Under the pieces are notes generated by a model that saw only the letters and a program-made list of their open reading frames with translations, made no database searches and was not told the origin of the DNA. A DNA stretch of 64,000 nt, from the NCBI GenBank assembly GCA_051294375.1, contig CM119271.1:9104120-9168119 (forward strand), in the 5' to 3' direction. Shown piece by piece: positions 9,201 through 56,480 of the stretch (the first letter of the stretch is position 1; each line of letters opens with the position of its first letter). Both the position numbers and the translations under genes were made by a program. The DNA is from Paraspadella gotoi (Eukaryota; Animalia; Chaetognatha).

Positions 9201-12200
9201 CAACAACACATCATCTAGCGACCGACTTCTCCCAGGGGGTGGGGGGGATGTATGGTGGACTAAAATCCACCAAAAGTTCATTCGCCTCCAAACCCAAAGG
9301 TCCGAGGTTCTAACTTGCCTCGCAGTTAAGAGGGACAAGGCGCTTAACCCTTCTGATCCGAAGCTCAGGGAATGCTTATATAATATATATTGAACGGTTC
9401 TATACATTATATACTGTGAGTTATCATTTGTTAGTTGTTTTGAATGGATAAATGTTATACGTATTTATGTTGCTGTGAGGTAATTTCTGCTAATATTTTT
9501 GTTCTTAAATATTCATAACAGGGTATAAAATTGATTAGAAATTAAGAGTTAGTTCATTGAGAAGATAACTCGGATCAAGAGCTAATATATTCAAATGGAA
9601 GTTCAATATTGTTTATATGATATTTAGATAATATAAATAACATCAGAAGGGCTGTAGAATTAAATCGTTTAAAATTCATCAAACGGTAAAATATTATCTT
9701 TAAATATGTGGAGCTCTCTCTACTTTTTTCTTTTCAAATAATAGCTTCATTGTTTTTTCTCTTAAGTAATATTTGAAAAAATGTAATCATGTTGCTCCTC
9801 TCCACCACGCAAATGCTCTTTTGTTCCAGATGTCGTGTGTCCACAAGAAAGACAAAAGAGAAAAGCAGAAGGAGCAGACTCTTGCTCCTCTCCTTCTCTT
9901 CCTCCTCTCAGCTCCACCTCTTGGGGTGCATCGGAAAGGAAAATCACTTTGTTTCACGACCACGTGTTCACAAGTTTTGTAATATTTTTGAATATTTTTT
10001 GTAATATTTTTTGGATTTTTCTTTTGAAATCTTTGTGTGGATATTTCCTATTTGTTTCCAAAATTTCTGACAATTTTGAAGTCGGTTTTGACTCACTATT
10101 ATGTCCGAGTCTCGCGAGTCAAATTCGAGCCCACGCTTAAGCGGTCATAAGCAAGCGGGCCTCTCCAGCTCAGGAGCCGCCTGTGGACATGGTCTGTCTC
10201 CTGCCTTCGGGCGTACATTACTTTAAATTTTCGAATTTTTGTTTCGCTCCACCAACTCGACTTTGTTTGTATTATTTATTCTTCTTGCCGCTCTTGTTAC
10301 TGATCATCTGCGTGGTGGAGAGGAGCAACATGATAGGATTTATGGTTTCTAGTCATGCCCCTGCTTCTGGGTTCGACCTTGCTACCCCGGCTTTCCCCAA
10401 GTTGGCGTCGATTTTGCATTGACCAAATGCTTCCGTATATGATGCACCAGACTTGGACATTTCTGGTTCGGAAGATGAGCTCTCATCCGTATCTGATGTT
10501 GTTTCTGGGTTTGACTCCTTTGCCTCAACGCAGGGCTGCTGCGTTCCCGTCAGATTGGATTTGTCATCAATGGAAGGACTTTCGACAGATTGGTGAAGCT
10601 GGAGAGCTAAAACGGAGATGGGACTCCAGCCATGGCCGTTCAGTTTTTGCTAGATGATTGGATGGATCCACGCCTTTGGATTTCGGACCTCCGCAAAAGG
10701 ACAGCTGTCTTTAAGCACAGTTTGACGCCACCGCAAAGGACCGCAAATGGGCCCCTATTTTCAAGCAGTCGGTGAAGGTGATGAAAGATTTAGGTGCGGT
10801 AGCGAACTCTGTTGCACACCGCGGATAATCTGCGGTCTATCGTCGACTCTCTAAAGAGTTCTGATGTAGATCCTGAACTCGTGGCGGATTTGGAGGCATT
10901 GGCGGCCCCTCTCAAAGATGTTGGCATCCTCTGCTTTAGCTGATGCTCGTCATTCTGTGGCCCAGACGGCGCCCAAGGAGCTCAAGCCTACTCTTTCTGA
11001 AGCAGGCCCTTCTGTGGATTTCTTTTTTGGAAATTGGGCGACTGATGTCACTGCTGCAATCCATTCATTGCTTTTTAAAGACCAGGCTTCCAAGGCTAAA
11101 CCATTTCAGGACCCTCACAAGCGCTTCTATGGGAAGTCCAGAGGGACCTTTAGGAATTACCGCAAGTCCTCTTAAAAGCGTTCAGGAAAGGGGGACTCGG
11201 GGGTGTCAAAGGACGCCAAGTTACTTCCAGGATCTCCTTTGCGGCTGTCTCCTCGTCCGGCCCCTCAGGATCATCAGGCCTCGGATTTGTCCCAGGACAC
11301 AATTCTCGGTTCTCTGACCCTTCTCCCCTCTGTTCCAGTGGGGGGCAGATTACGTTTTTTCCTCCTTTTCAGAGAGAAGTTGGTGGAGGAAGATTCTCCA
11401 GTTCTTCAGAACGTTCAGGGTTTTCGCATTTCAGGTGCGGAGAGGATCCTGATCAGGATGCTGGTCCCTTCAGACGAGACTCCTTCTTTTGGAGAGACTC
11501 TCGAGTTGACGCGGATGTTTCTGCCTTGGAGAAAGGGGCAATAGAGGAGGTTCCTTTTTCTCCGGGCTTCTTTTCGAAGATATTTCTGTCACGAAGGATG
11601 GAGGTTGGAGGCCTATTCTGAACCTCAAGAGGCTCAAGGCTTTCATCTCGCCCCCTTATTTTTGTATGGAAGGGGCTTGAGATGTCAGGAGGATGTTGCG
11701 CCCAGGGGACTGGGCAGCCTCCATCTCTGAGTTGCTTATCTCCACTTGCCTCTGCACAAGGATCATCGCAAGTTTTGCCATTTTAATTTGGAGAGGCAAG
11801 ATTTACCAATATAAGGTCCTACCTTTCGGCCTTGCAACAGGCCCTTGGTTATTCAAGATGACTCGCCCTCTGGTGGCTTGGCTTCGGGTGAGGGGCATTC
11901 GGTGTCTCTTTTACATCGACGATATTCTCATTCTGGGCACGTCCATGGAGGTGTCTTTCCAATACTCGAGTGGCTCTTCGACTTCTCAAGGATGCGGGGT
12001 TCATTATTCACCCCAAAAAGTAGTTTAGTCCCTTTTCAGAACTTTGTTTCTGGGTCTCCAGTGGGACGGGGCGCTTCAACAAGTTGCGCTTCCCCAGCGG
12101 AAGATTTCTGTTCTCAGAGTTCTGGCTTCATCCCTCTTAGAAGGGATGACTCCATCAGCCCGTCAGGTTCTTCAGCTCATAGGTCATGTGGCTGCAGCCA

Positions 12201-15200
12201 TCCCAGCGTCTCTGATTCTCCGCTGCAGGTCGGCGCGGATTCAGCACGATCTCAATCTTATTTATCGTTCGGAGAAGGATTTGGAGAGGTTCTCTTCTCG
12301 GAAGCTGCGAAGGAGAAACTTCTTTGGATTTCAAATCTCAATCCAAGGGATTGCTCAGCGCCAGTCAACGACCTTCTCCCGGAGTGTTGTGCTTTGGAAG
12401 TGACAACGGACACTTCCATGGAGGGATGGGGCTTCCTGTTTCAGGGAGTTTGGGAGGATGCGGTTGCCCCTCTCCATATAACTGTGAAGGAGTTCATGGT
12501 TCTGCTCAGGTTCCTGCGTTCCTTCGGCGATCAGATTTGCAACAGCAATCTTCTGTGAAAGACAAAGTTTGGTGTCCATCGCTTGTCTCCGACGTTTTTG
12601 CAGCCGCTTGCCATCTCCCCACAAAGTTGTGAGAGAATTACTTGTCCTAGCGGATTCTCTGCGGATCCAAATCTTGGGTGTTCATGTTCCCTCAGAGGAG
12701 AACTTGGTTGCGGATGCGGCTTCTCGCGGGAGAGCAATTCAGGATTGACATTTGGATCCTTAAGTTTTTCGTCGGATTGCCCGAATCTTTCCTACAGCAC
12801 CATCAATTTGCATAGATCGGCAATTTCTGCAATTTCTGCAACTTGGCCCTGTTTTTGAGTTTGGATCGACTGACCGGTTCTGTTAGATGCCCGGTCCTGG
12901 CCTTGCGTTCCTGGTTGTTTGTCAGACAAGTTCTACGGCCTCAGCACGATTTTCTCTTCCCCGGCGCCGCCTCATGGACCTTTCTCTCCAGCGTTTTGCC
13001 ACCCGGAGAGATGCGGACATTGACGCGCCTCCTGGATCAACTCGCGCTATGGCAGTTTTGGAGGCCTTTGCTAAAGGAGTGAACTTGGATGTCATCCTTC
13101 GTGCTGGAGATTGGTCGGGCGCTCACTTTTCATTGTCGGGAGTCGGCTTGGGGCTTCTCTCAGCGGGGTCTTGTGGATGAGTGATTTTCCCCTCCGATGC
13201 ATCCCGAGAGGTGGAGCTGAGAGGAGGAGGAGTCTGCTCCTTCTGCTTTTCTCTGTCTTTCTTGTGGACACACGACATCTGGAACAAAAGAGCNNNNNNN
13301 NNNNNNNNNNNNNNNNNNNNNNNNNNNNNNNNNNNNNNNNNNNNNNNNNNNNNNNNNNNNNNNNNNNNNNNNNNNNNNNNNNNNNNNNNNNNNNNNNNNN
13401 NNNNNNNNNNNNNNNNNNNNNNNNNNNNNNNNNNNNNNNNNNNNNNNNNNNNNNNNNNNNNNNNNNNNNNNNNNNNNNNNNNNNNNNNNNNNNNNNNNNN
13501 NNNNNNNNNNNNNNNNNNNNNNNNNNNNNNNNNNNNNNNNNNNNNNNNNNNNNNNNNNNNNNNNNNNNNNNNNNNNNNNNNNNNNNNNNNNNNNNNNNNN
13601 NNNNNNNNNNNNNNNNNNNNNNNNNNNNNNNNNNNNNNNNNNNNNNNNNNNNNNNNNNNNNNNNNNNNNNNNNNNNNNNNNNNNNNNNNNNNNNNNNNNN
13701 NNNNNNNNNNNNNNNNNNNNNNNNNNNNNNNNNNNNNNNNNNNNNNNNNNNNNNNNNNNNNNNNNNNNNNNNNNNNNNNNNNNNNGCCATGAAGAATCCC
13801 GGTTCCATTTGGAACCATAAATTGAGAACGGAAGAGGAAAAAGGTAAAGAAAGAGAGGAAGCAACCAAAAAAAGATTTTTAACAAATAATGTTACAATAA
13901 GTGTTACTATAAATATGATATTCGAAATATTAATATCTAATTTTATTTAAATATAACTTTTACAATGTCAATACTGCCAATTTATTGGTTCATAATAAAG
14001 GCTTTTTTTCATTAAATTCTAACAATCATAAGGTCGATCCCCGGTGATTTGCCCACAATGTCAAAGAGAAGGAGCAGAGCCAGATATTTTGACGAACGAA
14101 GGATTTCCCGACAACGCTATAAAACGAATTCTGGCCAAAATGGAAGTAAAATGTGTCAGTTCCGGGTGCGATTGGAAGGGTATCCTTTCCGATTACGCAA
14201 AGCACGAAGACGAATGCGCATTTGCCGTTGTTGGGTGTCCCAACGATGGGTGCGATACAAAGATCGTCAGATCAGAACTGGCGAAGCATTTGCAGACATC
14301 TTGTACGAAAAGGATTGCAAAGTGCCCATCCTGTACAGCGTACGTGCGATTCGATGATATAGACAAACATTTGAGCACCGCTTGTCCTCGAACAGAAGAC
14401 GGACGACGATTTTGTCCATTTAATTGTCCCGACAAATTCGACGACAAAAGACTAGAGACTCACATAAACGAGAAGGTTGTATTTCATTTAGAGTGGGTCA
14501 GAAAAAGACTAGATGAGTTAGAGAATGCAGTAAACTCACAACCGCGCCGGCAGAATGTTAGCGTGCCCAGCGACGCGACGGAAGTCAAGAACGAAGACTC
14601 AGAAATGGAGGACTTGGACGAAACGGGCCCGGGGGTGTCGCAAATGGCGTCGCCACCTCCCCAACCGCTAAACGCTTTTTCACTTACTACTCCTTTCAAC
14701 ACGCCTGCGGATTTGGTCCGCATTAAGACGGAGATTGTATCGCTACAACAAAAAATCAGGCGACTGGAAGAAAGCAACCCGAGGCTTTACTCGGACTCGA
14801 TGCCTTCGACTTCAACCACGGCTACCGGCATGCCTTCCTCCGGGCATTTCGCCACGGCAACTATGAGCGGAGACGCGCCTCGAAAAGTGGAGTTGCTGCT
14901 TCGGAAGGCCGAGTCCTATGAGACAATGGTGACAGTGCTTAACGCAGCCATGGAGAGACTCCTTGTCCAGTTTGCCGAACTAGATGGCGAGAGGAGGAGG
15001 GAGAGAGAGACTATAGAAGGTCAACAACGAAAGATTCAGGTAGGCAATTTCTAATTTTTCATTTATCAAATATTATCTTGGCAATTATTGCTAATGATTT
15101 TAACTTTGGCGTTTGTGTTTTTAGCAATTGGAACATACTTTGGCACTCAAGGATGTTTCCATTGCTGAAATTCAACGGCGTTTGGACATGATCGAACACA

Positions 15201-18200
15201 CTTCCTACAACGGAACTCTTTTATGGAAAATTTCGAACTTTTTACAAAAACGACAAGAAGCTCTATCTGGACGACAGACCAGCATATATTCCCCTTGCTT
15301 TTATACAAATAGATTTGGTTATAAGATGTGCGCCAGGTATAGTAAGTCGCTGCTTGCAAAATTGTTATAAGTTTTAACCATGAGCAAAAGAGATTCCGCG
15401 AATTTTTTCACAAAAGGTAGGTTATCAAATTTTTTTTTGCACCGCGAGCACCCGCGAAGCAACTCTATAAGTACGTATTGCCCGTCTATCCAATGGTTAA
15501 TTTCATTTATATGTTAAACATAATTTGGGTTATATTATATCATTTTAAATAATGGTTTGCAGAGGAAGATTTGGCTTACCGTCCCATTATGAAATCCTCA
15601 TCGTCTTTTTTATCATCCTCTTCCTGCCCCTCAGTATATTTTACCTAGCAATTTGTTCTCGTTTTCTCTCCGTGAAATTTTTTATTTTTCCTCTATATTT
15701 TCTTACTCTTTCCATAGATGTACTCTGAAATGCTTGTTGATGTAATCGCTAGAAAAACATATGACTATAAAGTTGATTTGATATATTTGGCATAAAGGTA
15801 AATTGAATTTGAAGAGTGATCTCGTTCTCTCTCTCGTTTCTCTGCAGTCGGTTTCCTGAGGGAAGCCTCCTCTCTGATTGGTCAATCAGAAGAAAAGACG
15901 GAGAAGCCAAGAGAGACAAGCCACTTAATAATCCATTCTCTGCCTTGATATCCAAAATTTTTTTTTAATTTTAAATTTTTTTATCGGATTCTGATAAAGC
16001 TAGTAGATAAAGGTTAATATTACAACTTTTTAAAATTTTATTGATTTGTCAGTAATAATAAGCAAAAAATATCAAATGAATGATGATGATCATGGTGTTT
16101 TTTCAATATTTTACCCATTTATCATTCAAATTTTTAAAAGTTGTAATTCTAACCTTTATCTTTCTGACTTTTTTATCTCGATCAGAATATATTTAAAAAA
16201 ATTAACATATGAAAAATATTTAATAATTTCTTATATATTAATAAAATCCACAGACAGTCCACTAGGAATTATGAAGCTGTAATCTTTAGTCACCTGAGAC
16301 CCTTGTATAAACCCACCATTAGAATTATTCCAAGTCCTACCAGACTTAACCTTAACCAAGTCTTACCAGACTTAACCAAACCTTAGTTATTATTTCCAAC
16401 AAGATTTATCCAGTCTGAGTCTTTCCTGGACTTAAATGTTTTCAGTCACTCCTGGACTTAGACGTTAAGGTTTTTGCCCGAATTAAGGTTAATGCTGCGC
16501 AACACATTGGGTTCCGCGTACAAACGTTGCATTTAGGAAAAAAACGACTCTTTTCACTATTGTTCAGTTGTTACTTACAATATTGATTAACTATGTGCCA
16601 CAACACAAATTGGGCCGAACTAAGGATTCGTTAGAAACATCTCCACCCGTTTCTAATGATAAAATAGTACCATTTTGGCAACTTTTAGGAAAAAAAATTA
16701 TGTTTATTTTTGTCCATTTTTACTTACGACTTCTGATTTGAATGCCAAGGAAAGTTGAGAAAAATTTTTTACTTTGGAAATCCGTTCTTCCTTATCTTCT
16801 TTATCCCTGGGTAAATTTATTTGCTTAAATCATTTACAGTTTGCCTATGAATTTTAAAGTTAACAAGTCAAAAAGTTGCAGTTTCAGTCTTTATATTAAT
16901 TTGTTAAAAAAAATAATTCAAATTAGTTTAAATTAACAGAAAATATAGCTTATTGAATAAGCTTTTAACACCAATAAAATTTAAAAAAAAACTTTTTTCA
17001 TTTAGCCACAAATAATTTTTAAAGACAACTTTTAATTTGTGACTTTTTGTGACTTGCATTTATTTTTGATAAAGAGAATATTTATAAAAGATGGGGTACT
17101 TACTGACATTTATAAAACAAAAAAAACTGCATCATTTTACCCCAATGGAAAGCGTCAGGACTTTTTTCTCAGAATCGAACAGATTTTGCGGAAAATATTT
17201 TCCGCAAAATCTGTCATTTACTAAATCTGCCAGGCAACCAAAATTGAAATAAAATCTTTCTGTTACCTTTAATTTTCTTTCTTATAATGCATATAAGATT
17301 TTTTTTTTGATTTGGCTCAATGTAAACATAGTGAGAAGAAAGAGAAAAGGGAGAACAAGAAAAGGAGAAGGGGAGAGATTGAAAGAGGGGGAGAAAGGCA
17401 AAAAAGAAGGCAAATGGCGAAAAAAAAGTGAAACAAATGTAAGGTGGGAAAAGAGGGGAAAATTGAAAGAAAAAGAGGGGAAAAGAAAGGGAAAGAGAGA
17501 AGAAGAGAAAAAAGGCGAGGAAAGTGCAAAAATGGCAGAAAAGGTAGGGGCTAAAAAAATGGTAAGTGACAGCGTGAGAAGTAAGGGAGGAAAGAGGAAG
17601 AGAAAAATATAAAGAAAGAGAAGAAAAGAGGTGAGAAAAATAATCAGGAAAAGCGTATGAAGGAAAAAAAAAAGTTGTAAACAGATAATGTGGTGTCTTG
17701 CCTAAAAACTTTTATGTAAGTGAAAGACGTGAAGATTCTTATGAGGAATTCGATCTTTAAAAATCATCTGCACCATAAAAATTCAAGCATACTTTTTTCT
17801 AAAATAAGCGCAGTTAATGAGATTAGATGACAAGCATTGAAGAAATCATGTCTTACCGTATTTTTAACTCATAGAAATTTACATGGGAAGTTCTAAGTGA
17901 TAAGAAGGAGATAACTTGAGACTACCGTTTTTATAAATGAAGAAAGCTTTGTACTAACCAATGAGATCAAAAAAATATGGTAATTTTTGAAGTTCAGATT
18001 TCGTTGTCTAAAAGAGAGTCTGAACCATTGAAATTGATTTGCCTTGTATTTATGATCATGTAAGATGAGCTCGAAAGCTCGATTTGTGAATTACCAATGG
18101 ATTTTTAGAATCTTTTTGACAGGTAAGCTTTTGTTTGGGGACTAAAATCGTCACTGGCATTAACCGCAATTCGCCTTTCGTCCGTCTGAACTTTCTTCCG

Positions 18201-21200
18201 GCCATATTGGTATCAGGAAAGCGATGGAGCCTATTACATGTATGAATTCAAAAATATTGTGGTGACTAAAATCGCTAGGATTTTTCAAAAAGAAACACCG
18301 TACTTTGTCGTCTTTGTTAATGTACTGGCCGTCGCCATTATCTATGAGATTTGAGCCGCCGCAAGATTCAAATCATAACATCAAGCGAGAGCTGTATCTT
18401 GTGAAATACATTCAAAACCTCTTAGTCTTAGCTTTCAGTCGATGCTCAAAAAGTTGAAAATATTTATAGGATAATACCCTAATTAACATTGTAACATGAC
18501 AAGTCGTTTTTCTTTCCGCGCAAATAGAAGATTATCTCGGCTTAGTCAAACTTTTCATCCATGTTAGTTGGTTATTACTAATGATAATTTAAATTCAAAA
18601 ACATTTTTGGAATCCATTACAGAGAGAGTCTTCCTGCCTCAGATATATTTTACCAGCACTAATTTGTTCTCGTTTTCTCTCCGTGAAATTTTATTTTTCA
18701 CTACTATATTTTCTTATCTTCCATAGATGTAATCCTGAATTAGCTTGTTGATGTAATCGCTAGAAAACATATGACTATAAATTGATTTGATATATTTGCA
18801 TAAGGTAAATTGAATTTGAAGATGATCTCGTCTCTCTCGTTTCTCTCGAGTCGGTTTCCTGAGGAAGCCTCCTCTCTGATTGGTCAATCAGAAGAAAAGA
18901 CGGAGAAGCCAAGAGAGCAAGCCACTTAATAATCCATTCTCTGCCTTGATATCCAAATTTTTTTTATTTTAAATTTTTTTATCGGATTCTGATACAGGCT
19001 AGTAGTAAGAGTTAATATTACAACTTTTAAAATTTTATTGATTTGGTCATAATAAGAAGACAAAGTATCAAATGAAATGATTGATGATCATGGTGTTTTT
19101 TCTTTTACATTTATCATTCCAAATTTTAAAAGTTGTAATTCTATACCTTATATCTTTCTGACTTTTTATCTCGATCAGAATATATTTAAAATTAACATAT
19201 GAATTATTTATATTCTTATAATGAATTAATAAATCCACAGACAGTCCACTAGGAATTATGAAGCTGTATCTTTAGTCACCTGAGCACTTGTATAAACCCA
19301 CATCATAGAATTATTCCAAGTCCTACCAGACTTAACCTTAACCAAGTTTTAACCAGACTTAACCAAACCTTAGTTATTATTTCCAACAAGATTATATCGT
19401 ACTGAGTCTTTCCTGGACTTAAATGTTTTCAGTCACTCTGGACTTTAGACGTTAAGGTTTTGCCCGAATTAAGGTTAATGCTGCCAACACATTGTTCCGC
19501 GTACAAACGTTGCATTAGGAAAAAAACGACTCTTTTCACTATTGTTCAGTTGTTACTTACAATATTGATTAACTGTGCCACAACACAAATTGGGGCCGAG
19601 GGATCGTTAGAACATCTCCACCCGTTTCTAATGATAAGTACCATTTTGGCAACTTTTAGGAAAAAAATTATGTTTATTTTTGTCCATTTTTACTTACGAC
19701 TTCTGATTTGAATGCCAAGGAAAGTTGAGAAAAATTTTTTACTTTGGAAATCCGTTCTTCCTTATCTTCTTTATCCCTGGGTAAATTTATTTGCTTAAAT
19801 CATTTACAGTTTGCCTATGAATTTTAAAGTTAACAAGTCAAAAAGTTGCAGTTTCAGTCTTTATATTAATTTGTTAAAAAAAATAATTCAAATTAGTTTA
19901 ATAACAGAAAATATAGCTTATTGAATAAGCTTTTAACACCAATAAAATTTAAAAAAAAACTTTTTTTCATTAGTATTTTTTAAGACTTTTAATTATTTGT
20001 GACTTTTTGTGACTTGCATTATTTTAGATAAGAGAATATTATAAAAGATGGGGTACTTACTGACATTATAAAACAAAAAAAACTGCATCATTTTACCCCA
20101 ATGGAAAGCGTCAGGACTTTTTTCTCAGAATCGACAGATTTGCGGAAAATATTTTCCGAAAATCTGTCATTTACTAAATCTGCCAGGCAACCAAAATTGA
20201 AATAAATTTCTCTGTTCCTTTAATTTCTTCTTATAATGCATATAAGATTTTTTTTTGATTTGGCTCAATGTAAACATAGGTGAGAAGAAAGAGAAAAGGG
20301 AGAACAAGAAAAGGAGAAGGGGAAGATATTGAAAGAGGGGGAGAAAGGCAAAAAGAAGGCAAATGGCGAAAAAAAAGTGAAACAGTAATTGGTGGGAAAG
20401 AGGGGGAAAATTGAAAGAAAAAGAGGGGGAAAGGGGGAGAGAAGAAGAGAGAAAAAAGGCGAGGAAAGTGCAAAAATGGCAGAGGTAGGGGCTAAAAAAT
20501 GGTAAGTGACAGCGTGAGAAGTAAGGGAGGAAAGAGGGAGAGATAAAGAGAAGAAAAGAGGTGAGAAAAATAATCAGGAAGCGTATGAAGGAAAAAAATA
20601 TGTAAGATATGTGTTCTTGCCTAAAAACTTTTATGTAAGTGAAGACGTGAAGATTCTTATGAGGAATTCGATCTTTAAAAATCATCTGCACCATAAAAAT
20701 TCAAGCATACTTTTTTTCTAAATTAAGCAGTTAATTGGATGATTGACGATTGAAGAATTCATGTCTTTACCGTATTTTTTGCTTTTATGGGAAGTTCTAA
20801 GTGATAAGAAGGAGATAACTTGAGACTACCGTTTTTATAAATGAAGAAAGCTTTGTACTAACCAATGAGATCAAAAAATATGGTAATTTTGAAGTTCAGA
20901 TTTGTCGTTGTCTAAAAGAGGCTGAACCATTGAAATTGATTTGCCTTGTATTTATGGATCATGTAAGATGAGCTCGAAAGCTCGATTTGTGAATTACCAA
21001 TGGATTTTTAGAATCTTTTGACAGGTAAGCTTTTGTTTGGGACTAAAATCGTCACTGGCATTAACCGCAATTCGCCTTTCGTCCGTCTGAACTTTCTTCC
21101 GGCCATATTGGTATCAGGAAAGCGATGGAGCCTATTACATGTATGAATTCAAAAATATTGTGGTGACTAAAATCGCTAGGATTTTTCAAAAAGAAACACC

Positions 21201-23703
21201 GTACTTTGTCGTCTTTGTTAATGTACTGGCCGTCGCCATTATCTATGAGATTTGAGCCGCCGCAAGATTCAAATCATAACATCAAGCGAGAGCTGTATCT
21301 TGTGAAATACATTCAAAACCTCTTAGTCTAGCTTTCAGTCGATGCTCAAAAGTTGAAAATATTTATAGGATAATACCCTAATTAACATTGTAACATGACA
21401 AGTCGTTTTTCTTTCCGCGCAAATAGAAAATTATCTCGGCTTAGTCAAACTTTTCATCCATGTTAGTTGTGTTATTCTAATGATAATTTAAATTCAAAAA
21501 CATTTTTGGAATCCATTTATTCTTGGCTTTCAGTCGATGTCAAAACGTTATTAAAATAGCTTCCTTAAAAAAAGTTATATCACATTTTTTGNNNNNNNNN
21601 NNNNNNNNNNNNNNNNTTTTTGCCACAAGTCATCTTTTAAAAGTTTTCAAAAAGTAAGTTCTCTGTGACAGCTCATATGGAAACAATATATCATAGAAAA
21701 AAATAAAGACAGTTTTATCCGCTTGGCCTTGCCTTTAATTAATACCCATTCGCCTATTTAGTAATCTGTACATTTTGTTATAACTTTTCTAAACTGGATT
21801 TGTAAATGCTCCAGAGACAAATAAATTATGCTTAAAAGTATTTTGAGTCGGAGTAGGTTTAATTACCAATATTAGCACAACTTTAATTGACCAATGACTA
21901 CCTAGTGGAGCAATTTGATCAGTTTAGCGGTGCGCAGGTGCAGAAAAGCTGTCCTTCCCTTTGGAGTCATAAATAAATTGATTGGTATGAAATTTTGTAT
22001 GTGTGTAGGAAAGTGTGTGATTGAGCTGGAAATAAAGTTTCAATGGAATTATACTTTATACTTAATATTTAACTATTTTTACTTATAAATTGAAATGAAA
22101 TTTCTGTGTGATAGGAAAGTATGTGATAAAGATGGATATAAATTTTTGATGGAATCGTAGGAGTGGAAAAGATTTAAAAAATTGAAATAAATGTGTCTTT
22201 TGGTTTTCTATTTTAAAAAGTTTTTCTCTTGCTGTCTCTGATTGATTGATTGAATTGATTGATTGACCAAATTATGTCAGTTGACCAAATTATGTCAGTT
22301 GACCAAATTATGTCAGTTGACCAAATTATGCAATTAACCAAATTACACAATTTTACCAAATTACGTCCGTTGATTAAATTATGTCAGTTGACCTAAATAC
22401 GTGATTGTCATGTTACAATTTGTTATAATCTTTTAAGATCACAAATTGAGAATCAGAAAAAAAATACCACAATTTATCTTTGGATTATGGTGGACTAAAA
22501 TCCACCAACCGTTCATCAGTGGCCATTGGTGCCGGAGTCAAGTTATTTGCCTCCCAACCCAAAGGTCCGGGGTTCTAGCCCCGTGGCCGCCTAGCAGTTA
22601 AGAGGGACGGGGCGCTTAACCCGCCTGTAACATGGTGTTACAGCCTGATCCGAAGCTCAGGAACTGCTTATATTGAACGGTTCTGTCATTAACACTTATC
22701 GATAATTACTGTCTCTTCATTGGTGAGCCCGACTTCCGAACACAACAGCAACAACAACACTTTCAGGTGACATGCCTCAACCTGGCGATGCACTTTCCTC
22801 CAACAACACATCAGGCGACATGCCTCAATTTGGTGATGAACTTTCCACCAACAACAATTCACTGAAGAGACGCAATAGACTTCTCCCTACGGGAGGGGGG
22901 ATGTATGGTGGACTAAAATCCACCAACCGTTCATCAGTGGCCATTGGTGCCGGAGGCAAGTCATTCGCCTCCCAACCCAAAGGTCCGGGGTTCTAGCCCG
23001 GTAGCCGCCTAGCAGTTAAGAGGGACGGGGCGCTTCACCCGCCTGTAACATGGTGTTACAGCCTGATCCGAAGCTCAGGGACTGCTTATATTGAACGGTT
23101 CTGTCATTAACACTTATCGATAATTACTGTCTCTTCAGGATTAGCTTATTACTGCTTAATTATCGTCGGCAGATCTGACGTTGTTTGATCAAACTTGTTT
23201 TGAGACTATTCAATTACTTATTGATTTGTCAGTACTAAAGTTTCGACACGCAGCACCTGTGGACTTTCATATGGTTATAATATTAAGAGTGTCAAATTCC
23301 AACTTAAAATAGACGATATTTGTGGCACATAAATGGTCTTCGGTCAATGGTTTTATTTTGTTACAGAATGTATCTTAACGGCGATGGAATGGGAAAAGGG
23401 AAATACGTCTCTCTCTTCTTTGTAATTATGAGAAGCTCTGTGGATGCTCTTTTGCCATGGCCATTCAAGCAAAAAGTTACGCTGATGCTTTTGGATCAAG
23501 GGCCCACCGGTGAACATGTAATCGATGCTTTTAGACCCGACCCAAACTCTTCGTCTTTCAAGCGGCCTGTGTCGGACATGAATATTGCCTCGGGTTGCCC
23601 ACTATTTGTTCCTTTAACAATGTTAGATTCTAACAGAACGTACATCAAAGATGATACTGCTTTTGTAAAAATTATTGTTGACACACAAAACCTTCCTGAA
23701 TAA
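6240..23703 (+). CDS. TRAF2: TNF receptor-associated factor, TRAF2/3-like (RING, TRAF zinc fingers, coiled coil, MATH)
   Basis: Exons 6240(or 6288)-6519, 14033-15039, 15125-15336 and 23367-23703. RING CGRC…CGHRFCQVC|…CPQC, then FPDNA, SYNGTLLWKI…YTNRFGYKMCAR and YLNGDGMGKG…WPFKQKVTLMLLDQ…EHVIDAFRPD…MNIASGCPLF. TRAF2 versus TRAF3 orthology is not resolved. Confidence 0.9.
8575..8895 (+). pseudogene. Tc1/mariner-superfamily transposase C-terminal relic
   Basis: Translates as YPRGNYKWNQEETTRH…DFWPSSSDINLLEYSACGLLK…K*WDNL…CAAFQRRIKTVIRCEGGQM**, matching WPPxSPDLNPLDY..WG and …RLxAVIxxxGGH, with a premature stop. Confidence 0.75.
9003..9410 (+). mobile_element. Degenerate copy of the TRIM (mini LTR element) seen at 22486-23137
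   Basis: Internally deleted 5' LTR ending CTCTTCA (9119), PBS TGGTGTGCCCGAC, the same CAACAACA-rich internal region, PPT GGGGGTGGGGGGGA, then TGTATGGTGGACTAAAATCCACC starting the 3' LTR. Confidence 0.85.
9815..13293 (+). mobile_element. DIRS1-like tyrosine-recombinase retrotransposon, pseudogenised, in TRAF intron 1
   Basis: Inverted repeats at 9815-9948 and 13180-13293. Frameshifted RT (FFSKIFL…GWRPILNLKRL, YQYKVLPFGLATGP, YIDDILI), RNase H (TDTSMEGWG, HITVKE) and recombinase remnants (STINLHRSAIS; STRAMA…DVILRAGDWS). The right end runs into an N gap. Confidence 0.9.
13294..13785. other. Assembly gap (N run)
   Basis: Run of N. Smaller gaps occur near 21592, 57087, 57667 and 58119. Confidence 1.
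15619..21517. repeat. ~3-kb near-identical tandem duplication inside TRAF intron 3
   Basis: 15619-18618 is repeated at 18629-21517. Differences are mostly 1-bp indels; probably an assembly artefact. Confidence 0.9.
22263..22400 (+). repeat. 18-bp minisatellite (TTGACCAAATTATGTCAG)n
   Basis: Three perfect copies followed by about four decaying copies. Confidence 0.9.
22519..22590 (+). promoter_or_regulatory. tRNA-like (Gly-like) Pol III head within the LTR (second copy ~22938-23008)
   Basis: 72 nt closed by a 7-bp acceptor-like stem GTGGCCA/TGGCCGC. A-box-like TGGTGCCGGAG, CTCCCAA anticodon-like loop, T-arm with B-box-like GGTTCTAGCC. Confidence 0.7.
22593..22668 (+). ncRNA. Twister ribozyme, type P5 (circular permutation), in the 5' LTR
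   Basis: P5 AGCAGTT/AACTGCT; GAGG-GACGG; TAA-CCC-GCC; P3 CTGTAACA/TGTTACAG; P4 CCTGA/TCAGG with loop TCCGAAGC. The CCG/CGG pseudoknot is compensatory relative to the canonical CCC/GGG. Confidence 0.8.
23011..23086 (+). ncRNA. Twister ribozyme copy in the 3' LTR with a cleavage-site A>C change
   Basis: Same fold as 22593-22668, but TCA replaces TAA (C at 23036). Confidence 0.7.
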
Positions 23704-23716
23704 CGATGATAAGCGA

Positions 23717-24585
23717 GGCGTCCCCCTTCGTCGACTTTTACGACAGAAATAACCATCAGACTGTGGTCGGGTATTACGCCAGGTTCACCCCGCCTACGTA
23801 GAAGCATGACTCTTTCAGTTGTGACTCGGTGGCTCATGACCATAAGGTACCAGGATTGATTTCCAATGGTCAAATCGGGTAGCGTGGGATGACATTAAAC
23901 CGCCTTTGCGCATGGAAAACCCTCAAGCTTGGTTCCAAGCCCAGAACCCATTCCATTGCTGTTGAGCAAGCACAGATTATATGGATAGTAGTCTCCCTCG
24001 GCAGCAATAAAACGGGCCCTGTGCTTGGAACCAGGCTTGAGGGCTTTCTGGGATCTTTTCCAGTACTTAATGATCAGGAGCTGATGGCTTTACTTCTATA
24101 CTGAATGAGAAACAACTGAAAGTCATGTTTAATGGCGGGGTAAACTCGGCTCAATGCCCGACTACAAGACTACGATATTTTTCCTTTTTTTTTACAGAGT
24201 CTCGCACTATTTTTTAGTCATGAAAAAGTTTCTAGTAGTTATTAAAGGTACGAAAAAGAAGTGCCCATATTGTTTAACTCTGTAAAAAAGATTTAAAAAT
24301 ATCTATCCTCCAAGAAACTCCAAGAATTTGTTGTAGAGATCTTAGCACATTACCTGAGCATGGGTTAAAATTTTTAAAAGGCTTTTTCAAATAAAAAAAA
24401 AATTTAAAGTTAAAATTCTAATTTAAAAAAAAATTTACAAGATTGATTATTAATTTTAAAAAATTAACATTTTTTTAAAAAAACTTCCAAGAAAATTTTA
24501 AATCATGCTTAATCAAAATGATATGATCTCCCCTATGAGTTCTGATGTGTTTTTTCCGTCGTAAAAGTCGACGAAGGGGGACGCC
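23717..24585. mobile_element. TIR element (MITE) starting just after the TRAF stop codon, containing a nested Ginger-like MITE
   Basis: GGCGTCCCCCTTCGTCGACTTTTACGAC (23717) is inverted at ~24541-24585. The right flank reads GGTAAGGGTTAA (piggyBac-like CCC/TTAA end); the left end is diverged. Confidence 0.65.
23762..24166. mobile_element. Ginger-like MITE (TGT..ACA ends, long TIRs, 4-bp TSD AGAC) with a degenerate twister fold
   Basis: TGTGGTCGGGTATT…/…AATGCCCGACTACA, with AGAC on both sides. Homologous to 29690-30078. Confidence 0.8.
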
Positions 24586-25280
24586 AGGTAAGGGTTAAGA
24601 GGTCATAAAGGTTTGTCGTACGGTTATCAGAGGAGCTTTTACAAAGGCTTAAAATCCAAAAATATCCTACTTTAGAAAAGTTGTTGGTTCTCGCAAAGTT
24701 TCTTATTCCAATTTTAGTGAAAAAAACGAATATCACAATGAAAAATTTCTCAGGGTGTGATTTATGGACTTTCCAGGCCACTTTATGTGGCGTACCACTT
24801 CCGGTTCAAATTTGTTTTTTGAAATAAAATAGTTCTAGACTAAAATTAGTTATTTTTAAGCTTATTTTCTGGTTAATTATACATAGTTCTAAATATTCTA
24901 ATTTTTTTTATAAATTATATGTATACATGTATATTACTAAAATTATTAAATACTTATATTAATATTTCAGAACATAAAAAAAAGGAAATAATTGTATTTT
25001 TGAAAGAATTTTCTTATACTATTCTTTTGAATTAAAGTTAACAATAATTGTACTGTTAGTATTTATTAATATATATATTTTTAATATTATTTTATTAGTT
25101 AATTGATCAATAATAACCTCGAGGGTGCGCCAATTAGCCTCGCTAATAACAGTAAGAACAATTATAGCCAAAAATTTAACTACTTTGAATGAAAAGTACA
25201 AAATTCAAAATAATCTTTAAAGAAGTAAAAATAAGTTTTAAAAAAATATGATTTTACTAATTTTATGAATTCTAATTTGT

Positions 25281-25324
25281 ATCGCTGATGAAGGCTCAAA
25301 TTGTGAGCCGAAACATGTTCGTCT
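25281..25324 (+). ncRNA. Minimal type-I hammerhead ribozyme-like motif (Penelope-associated type)
   Basis: CG-CTGATGA-A-GGCTC(AAATTGT)GAGCC-GAAA-CATG-TT-CG: conserved core, 5-bp stem II, palindromic short stem III, weak stem I. Confidence 0.6.
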
Positions 25325-25728
25325 AATAATAAAATTGTTGCAAATAAATTACTCGTCTCCATAAAAAGCATTAAAACGCGAATTTTAAAGACATATCAAC
25401 ATATCAACTGTGTTGGTTCAAAGGCCATGTGGATTCCACTTTAAGATTTGGGAATCTACAATAAACCTACACCGATATCACTAACTTAACAAAATAACTA
25501 GGTAAGTCAGCGGTTATTGACAAAAAGCATCGATAATTATATAAAGAAATCAATAGATTCCGGTAAGGCAGTCGTAAAATATCATTCAGAATATGAATTT
25601 TTAAATAAACTATGTTTAACTCGCCCTCCTCTCCTCCATTTATTTTAATTACCTTGACCCCCCTATCTATCTCTTTATATTGTAATTTCTTTCGTTTTGT
25701 TGTAGTTAGTAAGTTTTAGATACAAAGT

Positions 25729-25910
25729 TTTTTATTGTTAAAAAACAAATGTAAAAGTGAAACAAAAAATACGGACATGGTTCGGCTCTGATAAGAGCGC
25801 GAATTTGCTTTGTGAAAATTTTCATTTTCACGAAGCAAATTCGCGCTTTTATCAGAGCCGAACCATGTCTGTATTTTTTGTTTCACTTTTACCGTTGTTT
25901 TTAAACAAAA
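25729..25910. repeat. ~85-bp-arm near-perfect palindrome
   Basis: GTAAAAGTGAAACAAAAAATACGGACATGGTTCGGCTCTGATAAGAGCGCGAATTTGCTTTGTGAAAAT is mirrored across a short spacer. Confidence 0.85.
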
Positions 25911-25990
25911 AATATATTTTCTTTCTATTTTGATTAGTGATTAGATGTTTACAAACAATGAATTTTATGTATTAAAAACGGACATCTTTT

Positions 25991-26032
25991 AACGCTGAAG
26001 AAGGCTTGGATTAAAGCCAAAACTTGTCCTTT
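25991..26032 (+). ncRNA. Degenerate minimal hammerhead-like motif
   Basis: CG-CTGAAGA-A-GGCTT…AAGCC-AAAA-CTTG-TC; the core GAAA is mutated to AAAA. Confidence 0.4.
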
Positions 26033-28080
26033 TTTAATAACTAAAACTCATTGTTATAATCATAGTCATTAATTTTTTTAATAAAATTTTTTTTAAGCAT
26101 TTATGAATGAAAAAGCCGTTTTCTTAATCAAACCTTAATCATAATTCGAGAGGCAAAATTCATTTGCTTATTATTTTCAAAATATTGACTTTCAAAAAAA
26201 TTCACAACCCACATTTAAGAAACTGTTTAGAAGAAAATAAATAATAAATTTTTAAAAGATATATTTTTTTTTGCATTGGTTGACCTTTTGGGAATTCATG
26301 TCTGCTCATGGGTTGAATAATCCCCTTAATAGTTCTAATTGTATACAAAATTTTTATAAAATTAGTTGACAATTTTGTCAAAAACCGATTATGTAAAAAA
26401 ATGTGCATTTTTAATATATAGTCTTTTTAATTGTTATCGTTTTACATCATTTGTGAACCAAAACCAAAAAATTAAGTTTTCGCGTTATAAGTAAATATAT
26501 TTGGACTAATTTACTAATTGTGCTGACGGAATAACTGCTTGGTTCTTTCAAAAATCGGTGTCTTTTTTCAACTGGAAGTGGTTTGCGCCAAAAGTGGCGA
26601 GGAAAGTCCATAAAGAGCATTCGAAAATTTTTTTTAGGGTGATATAATAATATTAATGAGCTGATGGTATTATAATATTTCATATTATATTTTTAAAAGA
26701 ACCTGGACTTCTTAATTTATTACATTTTCTAGTTCTAGTACAGTTCTGATACCCTTGCAACAACCGGGCATGACCTCCCCAAAATTAAAATGAAGAAATA
26801 GGAAAGAAAGACAAAACAGTCACGTAAGAAAAAAAACCGCCACTTTCAATTGACTTTTAAAAACTAACATATATTCCTTAAATTGAAAAAAAAACATATT
26901 TTTCATATTTTTTTCTAAATATAATTCTCAGCATTTTATAGTGTAGAAAATAATATAGTAAAATTTATACAGAATTTTTTTATATTTTCCATGTAAGTTT
27001 TAAACTTTTTTTTTAAACGACTATTTTGAGAACATTTTCCTTATCATTTTAATAATCTGCAAAGCCGGATGAATTTGGTCCGACTTTGAAAATTTAGTTA
27101 TGCGCGACTTTATAAGACTCGGTAGATCTGCTCTCCTCGCATATTTTTTATACCTTTTATTTGGTTTTTTATTGTCATTTACATTTAAATTTGTAACTTA
27201 TTGGAGGCTATTTCTCTTTAGAATGGTTTAGATATATATTAATAGCGAAAATCCCTTTTCTCAGGAAAAGCGAGCAATGCACCATGACGAATTTTACAAT
27301 ATCTCAAGCGTACTATCACTCTACAAATGAACGCTGTGTCAAATTGGTAAAGTGAATTTTTAATTTGAAAGAACCACCAGAAAGATAAGTTTATAGTTTT
27401 TTTTTTTGGTATGTCCATTATCATGTTTATTTGCATTTTTAATAACATGATGCGCAGTTTAAATGAGGAGGGATTTTTCTTTTGACAATGGCTCAAAAAA
27501 TTTAGGTGATATTAAATTTGTTGCTGTCCAGCTCTTGGTTAGAAAAATTGTTCATTTTGCCCATGCCAAGATTTTTGTAGAATGGGAGTGATTGACCGTG
27601 ATTAATTTCAAAATAAAAGATGTTAAGAATGATTGTCTAGAAAATTGGTTTTGAGAGACGCTCATTAAGTTTAGCTTGAGGAAACTGATAAACGCTATAA
27701 AATTAATATGCAGCTTATGATGTTGGATACTAAAACTATTTTCCAGCTGACTGCAGCTTGGTACCATTGCCAATGTAAATGACTTTATCAAACCATCTGC
27801 ATATCCGTAACATTCTTTCAATTAAAATCCATAAAATACTTTTAAATCTAGAAGGACTATAGTGAAAATCAGTCACGAAAGGCCTGTGATGATCAATATA
27901 ACGTTGTGACATAATAATATTTAACCAAGTAACTGAAAAACTAGCCGGTGGGGAGTTAGATTTAAAAAAGGGTGGCAGTTAAAAAGATTTAAAATATTAA
28001 AATTGACAAAAAGTATTTGCGACTTATGATTTCAGTGCTGATAAAATTTGATATAATTGTCTGATTTTTAAAATAAAGAC

Positions 28081-28150
28081 ATAAAGGACGTTTTAAAATT
28101 GTTCAACAACGATTTTATTTGTTGTTGAACAATTTTAAAACGTCCTTTAT
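28081..28150. repeat. Perfect 29-bp inverted repeat (hairpin)
   Basis: ATAAAGGACGTTTTAAAATTGTTCAACAA / TTGTTGAACAATTTTAAAACGTCCTTTAT. Confidence 0.9.
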
Positions 28151-28572
28151 CATCCAAACACAACGAAACGAAAGGAAAACGATGTCAAATAAGACATATA
28201 ACACTGTAAGAATTCTTAAATCCAGTCAGTACAGTAACTGCATATTTAAAACTGTACTGATTCACTGCATTCATTTGTAAAGTGACAGTAAGCTTGAGAC
28301 ACTTTTATATTTATAAACTACAGAAAACCAAATTTGATGAAAACTTATATAAAGAGTTTCGTTCCTATGGCCAATTTTTGGCCATGCAAATGGATTGTCG
28401 AACAATTTTTGAAGTTAAACAAACACTGTGCCGAGATGTGGAGCCTTTGGGAGAAAATTGCCCATTTTTTTTAATATGAAATTTTTTTTACAGGATCAGT
28501 TATATTTATATCTTAAGTAAAAAATCATTTAAAGCCCAATTGGATGTATTTTCATTTATTTAATTTATTTAG

Positions 28573-29580
28573 CAGCAACAAACGACTCATCAGATCTTCT
28601 TTCTCAATCACAGACGGTCACCACCACTCTCTACCGCTATCCTCAGCCGGTTCTCTGTACAGTAAGGCGTAGTGAAAGTTACATACGAAGATTCTAAAAG
28701 TCAATTATGAACAACATACCATCAGTGAACATTAATTTGTAAAAAAATTAATTTTATATTTTTTAATTTTGCAGTAGGCTATATTTATATATAGTACTAT
28801 CCTTATAAAATTGAAAAATTTCAAAATAGGCTTTTCTTAATTTTGATTGCAGATTTGAATTCCTCGTCAAAAGTTGATAAAGAAAATATAAATCATTTTT
28901 AAAAATTATTTCATTAAGTGGGTTAAAAATTTAAAAAACTATATTTAATATATATAAAGTTAATTTTCAGCTTAAAATATAGCTTTTTCTAATTTTTGAC
29001 CCACTTAATAAAGGAATTTTTCAAAAAGAGTTATATTTCTTTTATCAACTTTTTATGACGAATCCAAATCTGCAAAAAAATCTTAGAAAAAACTGTTTTG
29101 AAATTTTAACATTTATTGGTTTAGTACTAGTATAAATATGGCTACTGCGTAAATTGTAAAATTTATCTAAATTTTTTTATTAGATAAATGTTCATTAGTA
29201 TAGTGTTGTTCATTCCTCACTTTTAGAATTTTAATTAAAGTTAAATTTAGCAATTTTACTACGCCTTACTGTACAGTTGTTTATGGTTTTAGACTTAGCC
29301 TTATTTGGAATTGATTTTTTTTATTCGTTGGAGAATAAATCATTTTCGATCTGAATGAGCCTGACCCTTACGTGATTATTTAAACGAGACTAGTTTCAGA
29401 TCGAGAATGATTTATTCTCCAACGAATAAAACGGGAATCAATTCCAAATAATGCTGAAACCATAAACAATAAACTGTACAGAAAGATCGGCTGAGGACAG
29501 CCGGGAGAGTGGTGGTGACCGATGATTAGTCATTGATTGAGAAAGAGAGAGAGATGATCTGATGAGTTCGTGTGTTGCTC
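28573..29580. mobile_element. Foldback (long inverted-arm) element interrupted by a MITE
   Basis: 28573-28659 joined to 29272-29363 is the reverse complement of ~29395-29580. Confidence 0.7.
28660..29271. mobile_element. Tc1/mariner-type MITE with TA TSD, almost fully palindromic
   Basis: TA|CAGTAAGGCGTAGTGAAA … TTTTACTACGCCTTACTG|TA; inverted similarity extends to the centre. Confidence 0.85.
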
Positions 29581-29689
29581 TTGCCACATGTTCATCATTT
29601 TCCGGTTGTCTCCCCAGGGTCACATATCTCTCCTTTGGGGTTGAATTTTAAAATTCGCCTCGATTGTTCTATTTGTATAGTCAGAGATA

Positions 29690-30078
29690 TGTAGTCTGGC
29701 ATTGCCTAAGTTCACCCCGCCTATAAGCATGACACCTTCAGTTGTGACCCGGTGACTCGTTGAGTAAAGCCATCAACTCAGGTACCGGGTTCAATCCCAA
29801 CCCTGTACCTACCCTGTGGGAAGCGTGAGGATGGCTGTAAACCGCCTTGGGGGTGTGGAAAACCCACAAGCCTGGTTCTAAGCCCAGGAACGTTCCATGG
29901 CTGCTAGAGGGTTTAAAGAAGTTGTGAATAGTCATCTTCAGCCCACTTAGCACCTTATCCACACAGGTGGTCACGTCCGTCTCCTAGTGGTCATGAACTG
30001 ATGGCTTTACTCCATGAGCCACCGGGTCACAACTGAAGGTGTCATAGGCGAGGTTAACTTAGGCAATGCCCGACTACC
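29690..30078. mobile_element. Ginger-like MITE with ~90-bp TIRs, 4-bp TSD GATA, a Pol III-like head and a twister fold
   Basis: GATA|TGTAGTCTGGCATTGCCTAAGTT…AACTTAGGCAATGCCCGACTACC|GATA. B-box-like GGTTCAATCCC at ~29788. Confidence 0.85.
29815..29899 (+). ncRNA. Twister ribozyme-like fold, type P5
   Basis: GCGT-GAGGA-TGGCTG-TAA-ACC-GCC, then a P3 hairpin, then CCTGG-TTCTAAGC-CCAGG. Pseudoknot TCT/GGA; P5 GGAA/TTCC. Confidence 0.65.
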
Positions 30079-39378: not shown

Positions 39379-40749
39379 AGACGGGTATTCTAAGCTTTTG
39401 TCCTGAAGCTCTTTAGACTATGAAGTGTTTCGTGTGTTGGAAGGTTGAGTGGAAGGAAAGTTAATTGAAGGAGACTGGTTCAATTTATGGCGACATGGCC
39501 GAAGTCAATATGTGAGGCTCCCCCCGTGAAATACTCCGTGACCATAAAAATTTAGCGTAGCTCCCCTCTATTTGTAGACACTACTATATTATTCCTAGTC
39601 TTGTAATTTTTATTTTACCGTTTTAGGCTTTTTTACGATTTTACGTTATTTTACTTGTGTTAGAATTATTTTCCATGCTTAGTTTACCGGATCGTATTTA
39701 GTGATGTTGCCAGGTAATTTTGTTTTGGCTCCCCTATCTCGCTATACTCTATCGCTTGCCTTTCTTAATCTAGTCAAAATTGACGTTATTACATAAACTT
39801 TTCATTCCAGTATCGTTTTATTATTTTTGCGAGCGAGACTCTCCTCGCTCAAAACTTAAAACGCGCACACAGTCCTCTTTCTCGCTCTATGCAAAGATCT
39901 CGATCTCGTTTTATTTGGGTCACTCTGAAATGCCTTTAGCTTTACGTCCCTACAGTTCATGGAGTATACTTAAGTACGTACAATGATAAAACACATTTTG
40001 TAACTTTTTATAGACCAATTCTATTTCATATCTAGGAACAAAAAACTCCCGGTTGATAGTTTTTAAATTGACTTCATGAGCTGGTATGTGTTTCGCGTCA
40101 TATATTTCGACAAATACTCCTTTCTTTGTTATTATTTTGCCGCGCTATTTACAAAACTGTTAAAATATATATTTCATTACATATCAAAAATGAAATTTGT
40201 CATGATTTTCTTACCAAACATTTTTTATAACTTTCATCTAGTTAGAGGTTGTCTGATTACATATCATTCTTGAATCTTGATATGGAGTTATATACTATGT
40301 CATTTTCTTGTAAGAGTGATGGAGGCCTTAAACCACCAAAGCCTGTCCAAAGTCAGGGGCAAGATAGCTTATTTATTGAATGAATGGATAATTTTTATAT
40401 TGGTTGTACCAATTTCATACTCAATGGAGTTGAACTGCCCTGCGATCATAGGAATTTATGAATGTTGTTCATTTGGAAATTCTCCGCGAGGAGGAGCCAG
40501 GAAAAGCGAGAAGCGAGAAGCCAGAAATAAGTGGATCAAATCAGCAGACGGAAATCTCTACATTTTTTTTGCCCTTGCTCCTTGGTTTTGTTAAATCAGT
40601 CCATAACCCATTGTTATAGTCATGCATCCGGTGTAAATACCGAGAATTCGAACGATCGATGCGCAGGAAAGGCTCGTCGACGGCATTCTCCGCCTCAACG
40701 CGGAAAGTTCTCCCTCGATGACTTAGTCCGCTTTAGAATTTCTCTGAAG

Positions 40750-47982: not shown

Positions 47983-48300
47983 CGAACTAAAAAAAAAAAC
48001 TGAGAAATGTGTTGGAGGTTCAATTGGAAGTTATTTTTGTTTCATGGAGAAAGATCACGTGAAAACACAAATTGTTGATTTTTAAATTTGTGTAAAAATT
48101 TTGTTTAATAAAATATTGACGTAATTTCAAATTTACTTTTCATTTGTCGCATGGCTATATTGTCCATCTGTACCGGTCTAGAAAGTGAGGGAATCGTCGG
48201 AACACAAAGAAAACCATCATTTTGTTCTATCATAGTACCTTTTATATTTCCCATGAGTCAATAATTTATAATACCAGGTCTCTTCCAGCCATTTTTCATC

Positions 48301-56403: not shown

Positions 56404-56480
56404 GTTGGTTTAATTTTGGACAGTGCTATTAAACAGGTTGTATACGTTGTTAATATTATGTAGCATAACTGCTGTTATTG
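51700..56480. repeat. ~117-bp-period satellite with a conserved 40-bp core and two alternating spacer types
   Basis: Core AGCATAACTGCTGAAGTACACAGTCAAACTTCTTTGATTTT. Spacer A contains TTTTTGGACTGTGCATTAAACAAGTTGTATAC; spacer B contains TTATTATAGGAAAGATGCTTTTAAAC. About 16 units per duplicate. Confidence 0.9.

Follow-up and report, generated by a model that had tools for sequence, protein, structure and literature searches.

Three high-copy repeat families in a window of 64,000 nucleotides from the chaetognath Paraspadella gotoi (assembly GCA_051294375.1, contig CM119271.1, positions 9,104,120 to 9,168,119; all coordinates below are those of the window) were found to contain the same compact form of the type-P5 twister fold. 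They are a long terminal repeat (LTR) element of the kind known as terminal-repeat retrotransposon in miniature (TRIM), a miniature inverted-repeat transposable element (MITE) bounded by terminal inverted repeats (TIRs), and a third family with a fixed 3′ end. It is quite likely that the shared fold cuts at U^A as a ribozyme. On balance, we favour a reading in which a self-complementary hexamer, standing in the place of helix P1, pairs with that of a second copy, and cutting takes place mainly as a pair. Most simply, the core is one inherited module rather than a set of independent inventions; it would have been inherited once and then passed between elements.

A previous reading of this DNA, made from the sequence only, had aligned three strings, one from the LTR (22602-22661) and two from the MITE (29823-29888 and 23882-23945), and these were found in place exactly as written. 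Table 1 of PMC8501958, which gives the twister layout, and the account of the structure in PMC5408937 served as references for reading the cores. In both the LTR and the TIR element the order is P2′ - GA - T1′ - linker - U^AA - P2 - T2 - P3 - P4 - L4 - P4′, which is the type-P5 order and also agrees with the P5 strand order of Rfam family RF02684; by its sequence, the motif is a type-P5 twister fold. In the 5′ LTR the fold is intact and occupies 22593-22668 of the + strand, with P5 formed by 22593-22599 and 22662-22668, P2′ at 22602-22605, GA at 22606-22607, T1′ at 22608-22610, the palindromic linker at 22611-22616, P2 at 22620-22622, T2 at 22623-22624, P3 at 22625-22643 and P4 with L4 at 22644-22661. 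The predicted cut lies between 22617 and 22618. The fold recurs in the 3′ LTR at 23011-23086 (+ strand), 418 bases downstream, where the general-acid A has become C at 23036. A further core, at 40314, surfaced in a one-mismatch pattern search of the window and defines the third family. It has the same bulged P2 of 3 bp and the same six-base linker, a third form of T1, a P5 of 6 bp with a new sequence, and a pseudoknot T2 that is altered on both sides.

The U^AA at the cut and the GA of L1 (general base) are present in the cores at 22602, 29823 and 40314 and broken in those at 23020 and 23882. The 23882 copy of the MITE is decayed: one base of the conserved GA is lost, the linker is unpaired, and the copy differs from the majority of aligned read contigs at 23929, 23945 and 23950. 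Copies beyond the window were visible only through tables of read contigs aligned to it, and the majority form of the TIR family rests on one such table. In the 40 of 77 variant rows listed for the LTR, the variants in the core lie in the P3 loop or keep a P5 pair. Stem P4 has 4-5 bp, and 92% of its cells are paired in the five window copies. The fold is closed by stem P5, which was absent from the sequence-only reading and whose sequences differ among the families yet pair; its length is 7 bp for the LTR, 6 bp for the third family and, by the majority reads, 5 bp for the MITE. No P2 of four pairs and no intramolecular P1 stem was found: P2 has three pairs and a bulge in all three families, and a six-base palindrome stands in the place of P1.

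Several controls bear on whether these pairings could have arisen fortuitously. A descriptor of the type-P5 layout with T2 fixed as GC matched the window twice, both times with the bulged 3-bp P2 and the 6-nt linker, and in 60 shuffled windows it gave one generic match and none of this variant. With T2 left free, 3 matches were obtained in the window, all of the variant geometry, and 200 shuffled windows gave 91 generic and 3 variant matches. Pattern scans for homologues returned 20, 0 and 8 loci from viral collections and 56 from metagenomes; none of the 84 letter-only matches (0/20, 0/56 and 0/8 by collection) passed the pairing tests for P4, T1 and P2 jointly. A covariance model built from the five window copies scored these 84 loci at no more than 19.2 bits; in the window it brought up no further family. 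Two identical metagenome stretches (L033, 692-753, − strand; L062, 528-589, + strand) have a partial twister layout, in which P2 pairs, P4 has one mismatch and T1 pairs at two of three positions; they are probably chance or tRNA-like.

When the five window copies were aligned on the fold, 75 of 80 cells were paired and 9 of 16 pairs changed on both sides, against at most 2 when the partners were slid. T1 and T2 pair in all five copies, with changes on both sides at two T1 pairs and one T2 pair, and T1 takes three different paired forms across the families. These counts are descriptive, because the structure was derived from the same, related sequences. The covariation previously claimed held between the LTR and the MITE family, where changes are two-sided at two T1 pairs, one P2 pair and one P4 pair; it did not hold between the MITE copies, whose T1 difference is a one-sided C-to-T change that gives G.U. 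For this reason, and given the decay of the 23882 copy, it is three families rather than five copies that are informative. The pairings are not due to chance. That GC-rich transposon sequence aligns here by chance, or has been forced into alignment, is already largely refuted and highly improbable. A gapped alignment by sequence only can, it is true, shift the 5′ half of the LTR against the MITE by one base, and the z-scores for folding as a whole are weak (−0.1 to −1.2). Such an alignment would not account for three descriptor matches out of three with one geometry, as compared with three such matches in 200 shuffled windows, nor for the failure of all 84 letter-only matches to pair, nor for the independent match of an Rfam model to the third family.

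That match is a weak one. Rfam gave no match at the gathering cut-off, hammerhead families included, and at E<=10 it matched neither a stretch of 7.8 kb nor the LTR core. The Twister-P5 model (RF02684, clan CL00120) aligned partially to the second TIR copy with 18.4 bits, and from end to end with the third family with 25.8 bits (E 0.00056 in 111 bases), in an alignment that shows a P2 deletion and a short P1. The expectation that standard models miss the variant was thus borne out, and Rfam overlooks ribozyme-like repeats of very high abundance. In common with RF02684 are the strand order, U^AA, GA, the L4 letters, T1, T2, P3, P4 and an open P5. The differences are that P2 has 3 bp and a bulge here and 4 bp there, that a 6-nt palindrome takes the place of a P1 hairpin of about 20 nt, and that scores are 25.8 bits or less as compared with a gathering score of 37.6.

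The combination of a bulged 3-bp P2 and a 6-nt linker, which had been proposed as common to the LTR and the MITE, extends to the third family and to all three descriptor matches. The further proposal of a distinct twister subclass stands only as regards the shared variant architecture. The permutation is the known type P5, complete with its P5 stem, and the two traits alone make no subclass, because P1 loss and P2 imperfections have each been reported as tolerated in natural type-P1 twisters (PMC11662667). Deletion of P1 likewise leaves wild-type activity (PMC5408937). The traits are not new separately; what differs is their joint fixation, with a palindromic linker, in three abundant families.

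The linker itself is six bases long, as had been noted, but it is better read as a palindromic and probably intermolecular P1 than as a plain linker. In each of the three families it is self-complementary, and it remains so although its two middle bases, positions 3 and 4, are exchanged: C-G in the LTR, G-C in the TIR element and the third family. Because these positions are adjacent, the switch cannot serve a hairpin. All six bases self-pair in the LTR and the third family (self-duplexes of −8.3 and −9.1 kcal/mol), the linker of MITE copy 2 self-pairs with G.U, and that of the decayed copy 1 does not self-pair; the MITE linker in the majority of loose read ends is CGGCCG (runs X1, X3 and X7; organism B). 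By the same test, approximately 5% of hexamers would qualify.

In the proposed mechanism, the hexamer of one copy would pair with that of another, and the two copies would build each other's active sites. The 5′ segment of copy A (P5 strand, P2′, GA and T1′) would dock on the 3′ segment of copy B (U^AA, P2, T2, P3, P4 and L4) around a shared P1 of 6 bp, giving a domain-swapped double twister. Such a swapped dimer is fully nested, with no crossing helices. For isolated cores, its predicted energy compares with that of two monomers as −53.1 to −41.4 and as −18.1 to −5.0, pseudoknots being left out, and the unconstrained fold of a transcript with two LTRs already swaps P5 strands between them.

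The fold could also be an active monomeric twister: the linker would then form a P1 of one or two pairs closed by a short loop, and cutting would remove the tRNA-like head or set the RNA end. This reading seems unlikely, though its probability is not negligible. It draws on the deletability of P1 with wild-type activity (PMC5408937; PMC11662667), on the outer linker bases, which pair in all intact copies, and on the Rfam alignment, in which the linker of the third family appears as a short hairpin. It leaves unexplained the complementarity of the central adjacent bases and their swap between families, and a one-pair P1 raises the nested energy by approximately 4 kcal/mol. Dimeric action has a precedent in the minimal hammerheads of animal retroelements, which work as dimers (PMC7761336). 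In the minimal type I hammerheads of Penelope-like elements and amphibian retrozymes, a helix that is too short is likewise completed between two copies, but the ribozyme class is another one, and the dimer is measured there and inferred here. In Schistosoma Perere-3, the T-variants of the twister that lie at the 5′ end (Liu et al. 2021, PMC8501958) also combine a weak or absent P1 with a retroelement; those are of type P1, with a 4-bp P2 and a P1 supplied by flanking target DNA, in an autonomous RTE long interspersed nuclear element. A literature search that covered subscription papers poorly found no report of a twister dimerised through a palindrome, nor of one hosted by a TRIM, a Helenus element or a TIR element.

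Palindromic hexamer loops are dimerisation signals in retroviral RNA, and a descendant of the twister could have been kept as a dimerisation or packaging signal without cutting, or could be carried passively after recent capture. The shortened P2, the missing intramolecular P1, the Rfam scores below gathering, the decay of several window copies and the fact that a TIR element needs no RNA step would all suit such a descendant. It would not be expected, though, that the majority form of each of the three families should retain both pseudoknots, the U.A and A.A partners and the two catalytic residues (G and A), nor that T1 and T2 should change on both sides; the features kept are those reported as most needed for cleavage (PMC11662667). 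A twister descendant that no longer cuts is judged improbable.

A number of points weigh against cutting as a pair, or against the fold on which it depends. The covariation is informed by only three families and five window copies, and the five-copy controls are inflated, the structure having been taken from the copies tested. The dimer inference hangs on one two-sided central linker change together with changes at the outer pair. In the full transcript the dimer gains only 2.4 kcal/mol over two monomers, and each of these states lies approximately 15-17 kcal/mol above the free fold, with pseudoknots uncounted. Pairing predictions without pseudoknots give P2 zero probability, the LTR has a competing helix that joins T1′ to P2/T2, and P4 of MITE copy 2 forms only 8-35% in prediction. 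All three families score below the Rfam gathering score of 37.6. According to a suggestion relayed in PMC5408937, the active site might be disturbed if P2 has more or fewer pairs, and the CHiTA data of PMC11662667 cover type P1 only. The LTR variants are known from 40 of 77 table rows, and a third-family variant at 40357 breaks the last P4 pair, at less than 1% in organism A and in the one contig of organism B. The lack of TTTT in the TRIM, discussed below, is marginal, being shared by 112 of 2000 shuffles. Finally, the TIR element is of DNA type, has no evident use for a ribozyme, and has only one same-strand twister.

The LTR element lies at 22486-23137 (+ strand), with two 234-bp LTRs (22486-22719 and 22904-23137) that are 97% alike, an internal part of 184 bp, and a 4-bp target duplication, GGAT, at 22482-22485 and 23138-23141. 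Many read contigs end with unlike flanks at 22484, 22719, 22904 and 23137, and read depth over the element is 1.4e5 to 7.7e5, as compared with 35. The read ends suggest TA (22486, 22904), not TG, as the start of the LTR; the TG that precedes the 3′ LTR is apparently sequence of the internal part. The element is nested in another repeat (22400-22485 and 23138-23200), and contigs that skip it entirely resemble empty sites. A primer-binding site at 22720-22733 (+ strand) agrees in 13 of 14 bases with the tRNA-Trp site of Gypsy-32_NVi and Helenus-2_SyJa (Fig. S2 of PMC10886601), and a polypurine tract lies at 22891-22901 (+ strand), ahead of the 3′ LTR. An older, deleted copy at 9002-9409 (+ strand) retains a twister remnant (9321-9376) that lacks pairing at T2, P3 and T1.

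Each LTR includes a tRNA-like head upstream of the twister, at 22519-22591 (+ strand) and again at 22937-23009, with an acceptor-like stem of 7 bp and, in the 5′ LTR, a B box at 22571-22581. Box B reads GGTTC and the fold is tRNA-like, box A has YGG but not TRGCY, and ARAGORN called no tRNA at the head, which is predicted to be an RNA polymerase III (Pol III) promoter. The earlier claim that such a head accompanies the core applies to the LTR and TIR families; a head was looked for in the third family and not found.

By its structure, the element is a Helenus-type TRIM. Its length of 652 bp falls within the Helenus range of 311-1263 bp, and it shares with Helenus TRIMs (Kojima 2024, PMC10886601) the short non-coding body, a tRNA-like sequence per LTR, the primer-binding site and polypurine tract, the 4-bp duplication and a Gypsy-type tRNA-Trp site. 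It differs from them in some 130 extra bases, with the twister, after the tRNA-like part, in the lack of TTTT, and in an LTR that seems to start with TA rather than TG. In the main text of PMC10886601 the word 'twister' does not occur and 'ribozyme' occurs only in a reference, and exact 8-10-mer searches, which line-end splits can escape, found no twister core in its consensus file. The supplement of that paper contains several mollusc and nemertean Helenus and Ajax LTRs with a common hairpin-rich motif just upstream of the small-RNA part, which may be another structured RNA.

With a twister in both LTRs (one copy lacking the general acid), a primer-binding site, a polypurine tract and a 4-bp duplication, the TRIM is a candidate animal LTR retrozyme, with a predicted released unit of 418 nt. 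The LTR retrozymes of plants (Cervera et al. 2016, PMC4918200) likewise have a ribozyme per LTR, primer-binding site, polypurine tract, 4-bp duplication, dependence on Gypsy and an RNA of unit length between the cuts, and are thought to form a circular template for reverse transcription. Here the ribozyme would be a twister and not a type III hammerhead, the host is an animal, and the predicted tRNA-like promoter is internal. Animal retrozymes have been described as lacking LTRs, primer-binding site and polypurine tract. A Pol III transcript starting at the tRNA-like head would traverse both LTRs, because the element contains no TTTT. The two twisters would then pair only after the second had been made, and two cuts would free the 418-nt unit, one LTR plus the internal part. 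After circularisation, this unit could serve a Gypsy partner as template for reverse transcription primed at the tRNA-Trp site. Release and circularisation of this unit, with the circle step the least supported, we regard by analogy as a tentative possibility. A helix of 9 bp can form between 22674-22682 and 22925-22933, the tail of one LTR and the start of the next; it is kept in the old TRIM copy and would help to bring the two LTR twisters together.

A stricter version holds that an obligate-dimer twister has spread as a module, that the TRIM is the first animal LTR retrozyme, its 418-nt unit being cut out only from a full-length transcript and offered as a circular template to the Gypsy reverse transcriptase, and that the TIR element is two inverted LTR-like units. 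This version is rather doubtful as a whole. If it were true, Helenus TRIMs and LTR retrozymes, which have been described separately, would become linked. A ribozyme gated by dimerisation would solve the problem of timing in transcripts with two LTRs, as cutting would occur only once both ends exist, and would spare host transcripts from cuts by the thousands of copies that stand alone. Penelope-like elements, with their dimeric hammerheads, would then have a counterpart in another class of ribozyme. For most twisters in genomes no role is known, and the literature found describes none that uses a palindromic P1 shared between copies.

The TIR element is present in two copies on the + strand. 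Copy 1 (23762-24166, 405 bp) has TGT..ACA ends, the 4-bp duplication AGAC, the decayed twister at 23876-23950 and an inverted partial twister at 24011-24065 (− strand). Copy 2 (29690-30078, 389 bp) has TIRs of approximately 85 bp, the 4-bp duplication GATA, the twister core at 29823-29888 and a tRNA-like head at about 29746-29800 (+ strand; B box 29788-29798). The core of the MITE may resemble the Nin/Deu SINE domain. The element may be composed of two inverted head-twister(-tail) units, because its TIR contains half of the tRNA-like head and copy 1 contains the inverted partial twister. The LTR and TIR families had been taken as unrelated, and no convincing likeness was found outside the core: in 12 part-by-part comparisons, the best values were equalled by 5 and 39 of 1000 shuffles. 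As in Ginger2/Tdd DNA transposons (Bao et al. 2010, PMC2836005), the ends are TGTNR (the right end of copy 2 being CC), the duplication is 4 bp and the TIR falls within 50-180 bp. No transposase was linked to the element, neither of its two target sites fits RTATAY, and, unlike in those transposons, half a tRNA-like head lies in the TIR.

The third family is represented at 40295-40419 (+ strand) by a 5′-truncated copy of what is clearly a very abundant repeat: over 40324-40355 the summed depth, which is not a copy number, is approximately 1.5 million, as compared with 33 on the flanks (run X1), or some 45,000 times the level of single-copy sequence. Its twister, which lacks P3, lies at 40306-40364 (+ strand), with P5 at 40306-40311 and 40359-40364, the linker at 40323-40328, T2 as AC:GT and the predicted cut between 40329 and 40330, where neither a depth step nor a cluster of loose read ends was seen. 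None of the 9 listed variant rows falls within 40295-40356, and the variant 40359 G>A converts U.G to U-A, so that the P5 pair is kept. The 3′ end is fixed at 40418-40419, and further family sequence is present in the reads upstream of 40295. A decayed second copy lies at 56990-57161 (+ strand); its 34-base 3′ tail is 97% alike, and its upstream letters match reads. The fixed 3′ end, 5′ truncation, few head-to-tail joints and shared 34-base tail are compatible with, though not diagnostic of, a Naiad Penelope-like element; the 3′ end of Penelope-like elements has been described with 5′ truncation, partial tandems and a tail of 30-40 bp (PMC8557442). No long frame that could be an endonuclease-reverse transcriptase was found at 56400-57200, the window copies of the family being too short, and exact 8-10-mer searches, with the line-end limit given above, found no twister core in published Naiad consensus sequences.

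As regards the surroundings, the twister elements lie in and after a TRAF gene, with a zinc finger near 14032-15051 and a MATH exon at 23368-23700. TIR copy 1 itself lies within another TIR element, with 37-bp arms (23717-24585), which starts 14 bases past the stop codon of the TRAF gene. Further palindromic repeats, some of them nested, occur at 25717-25927, 28081-28150, 28655-29276 and 29265-29485 and gave only sub-threshold matches to microRNA models. By its motifs, a frame at 11815-12558 resembles the RNase H of tyrosine-recombinase retroelements, and it is suspected to be a DIRS remnant; Pfam gave no match to it near 11.8-12.6 kb. A single uninterrupted frame at 48265-49719 appears to encode Rad9 (48301-49716), with 35-47% identity to the best named matches. 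In a quick tree built from 48 of 120 listed matches, this Rad9 fell together with two database records on a long branch, which did not place it in any named phylum. The stretches 15619-21517 and 51335-56503 hold a tandem duplication of approximately 3 kb and a higher-order tandem array of complex structure.

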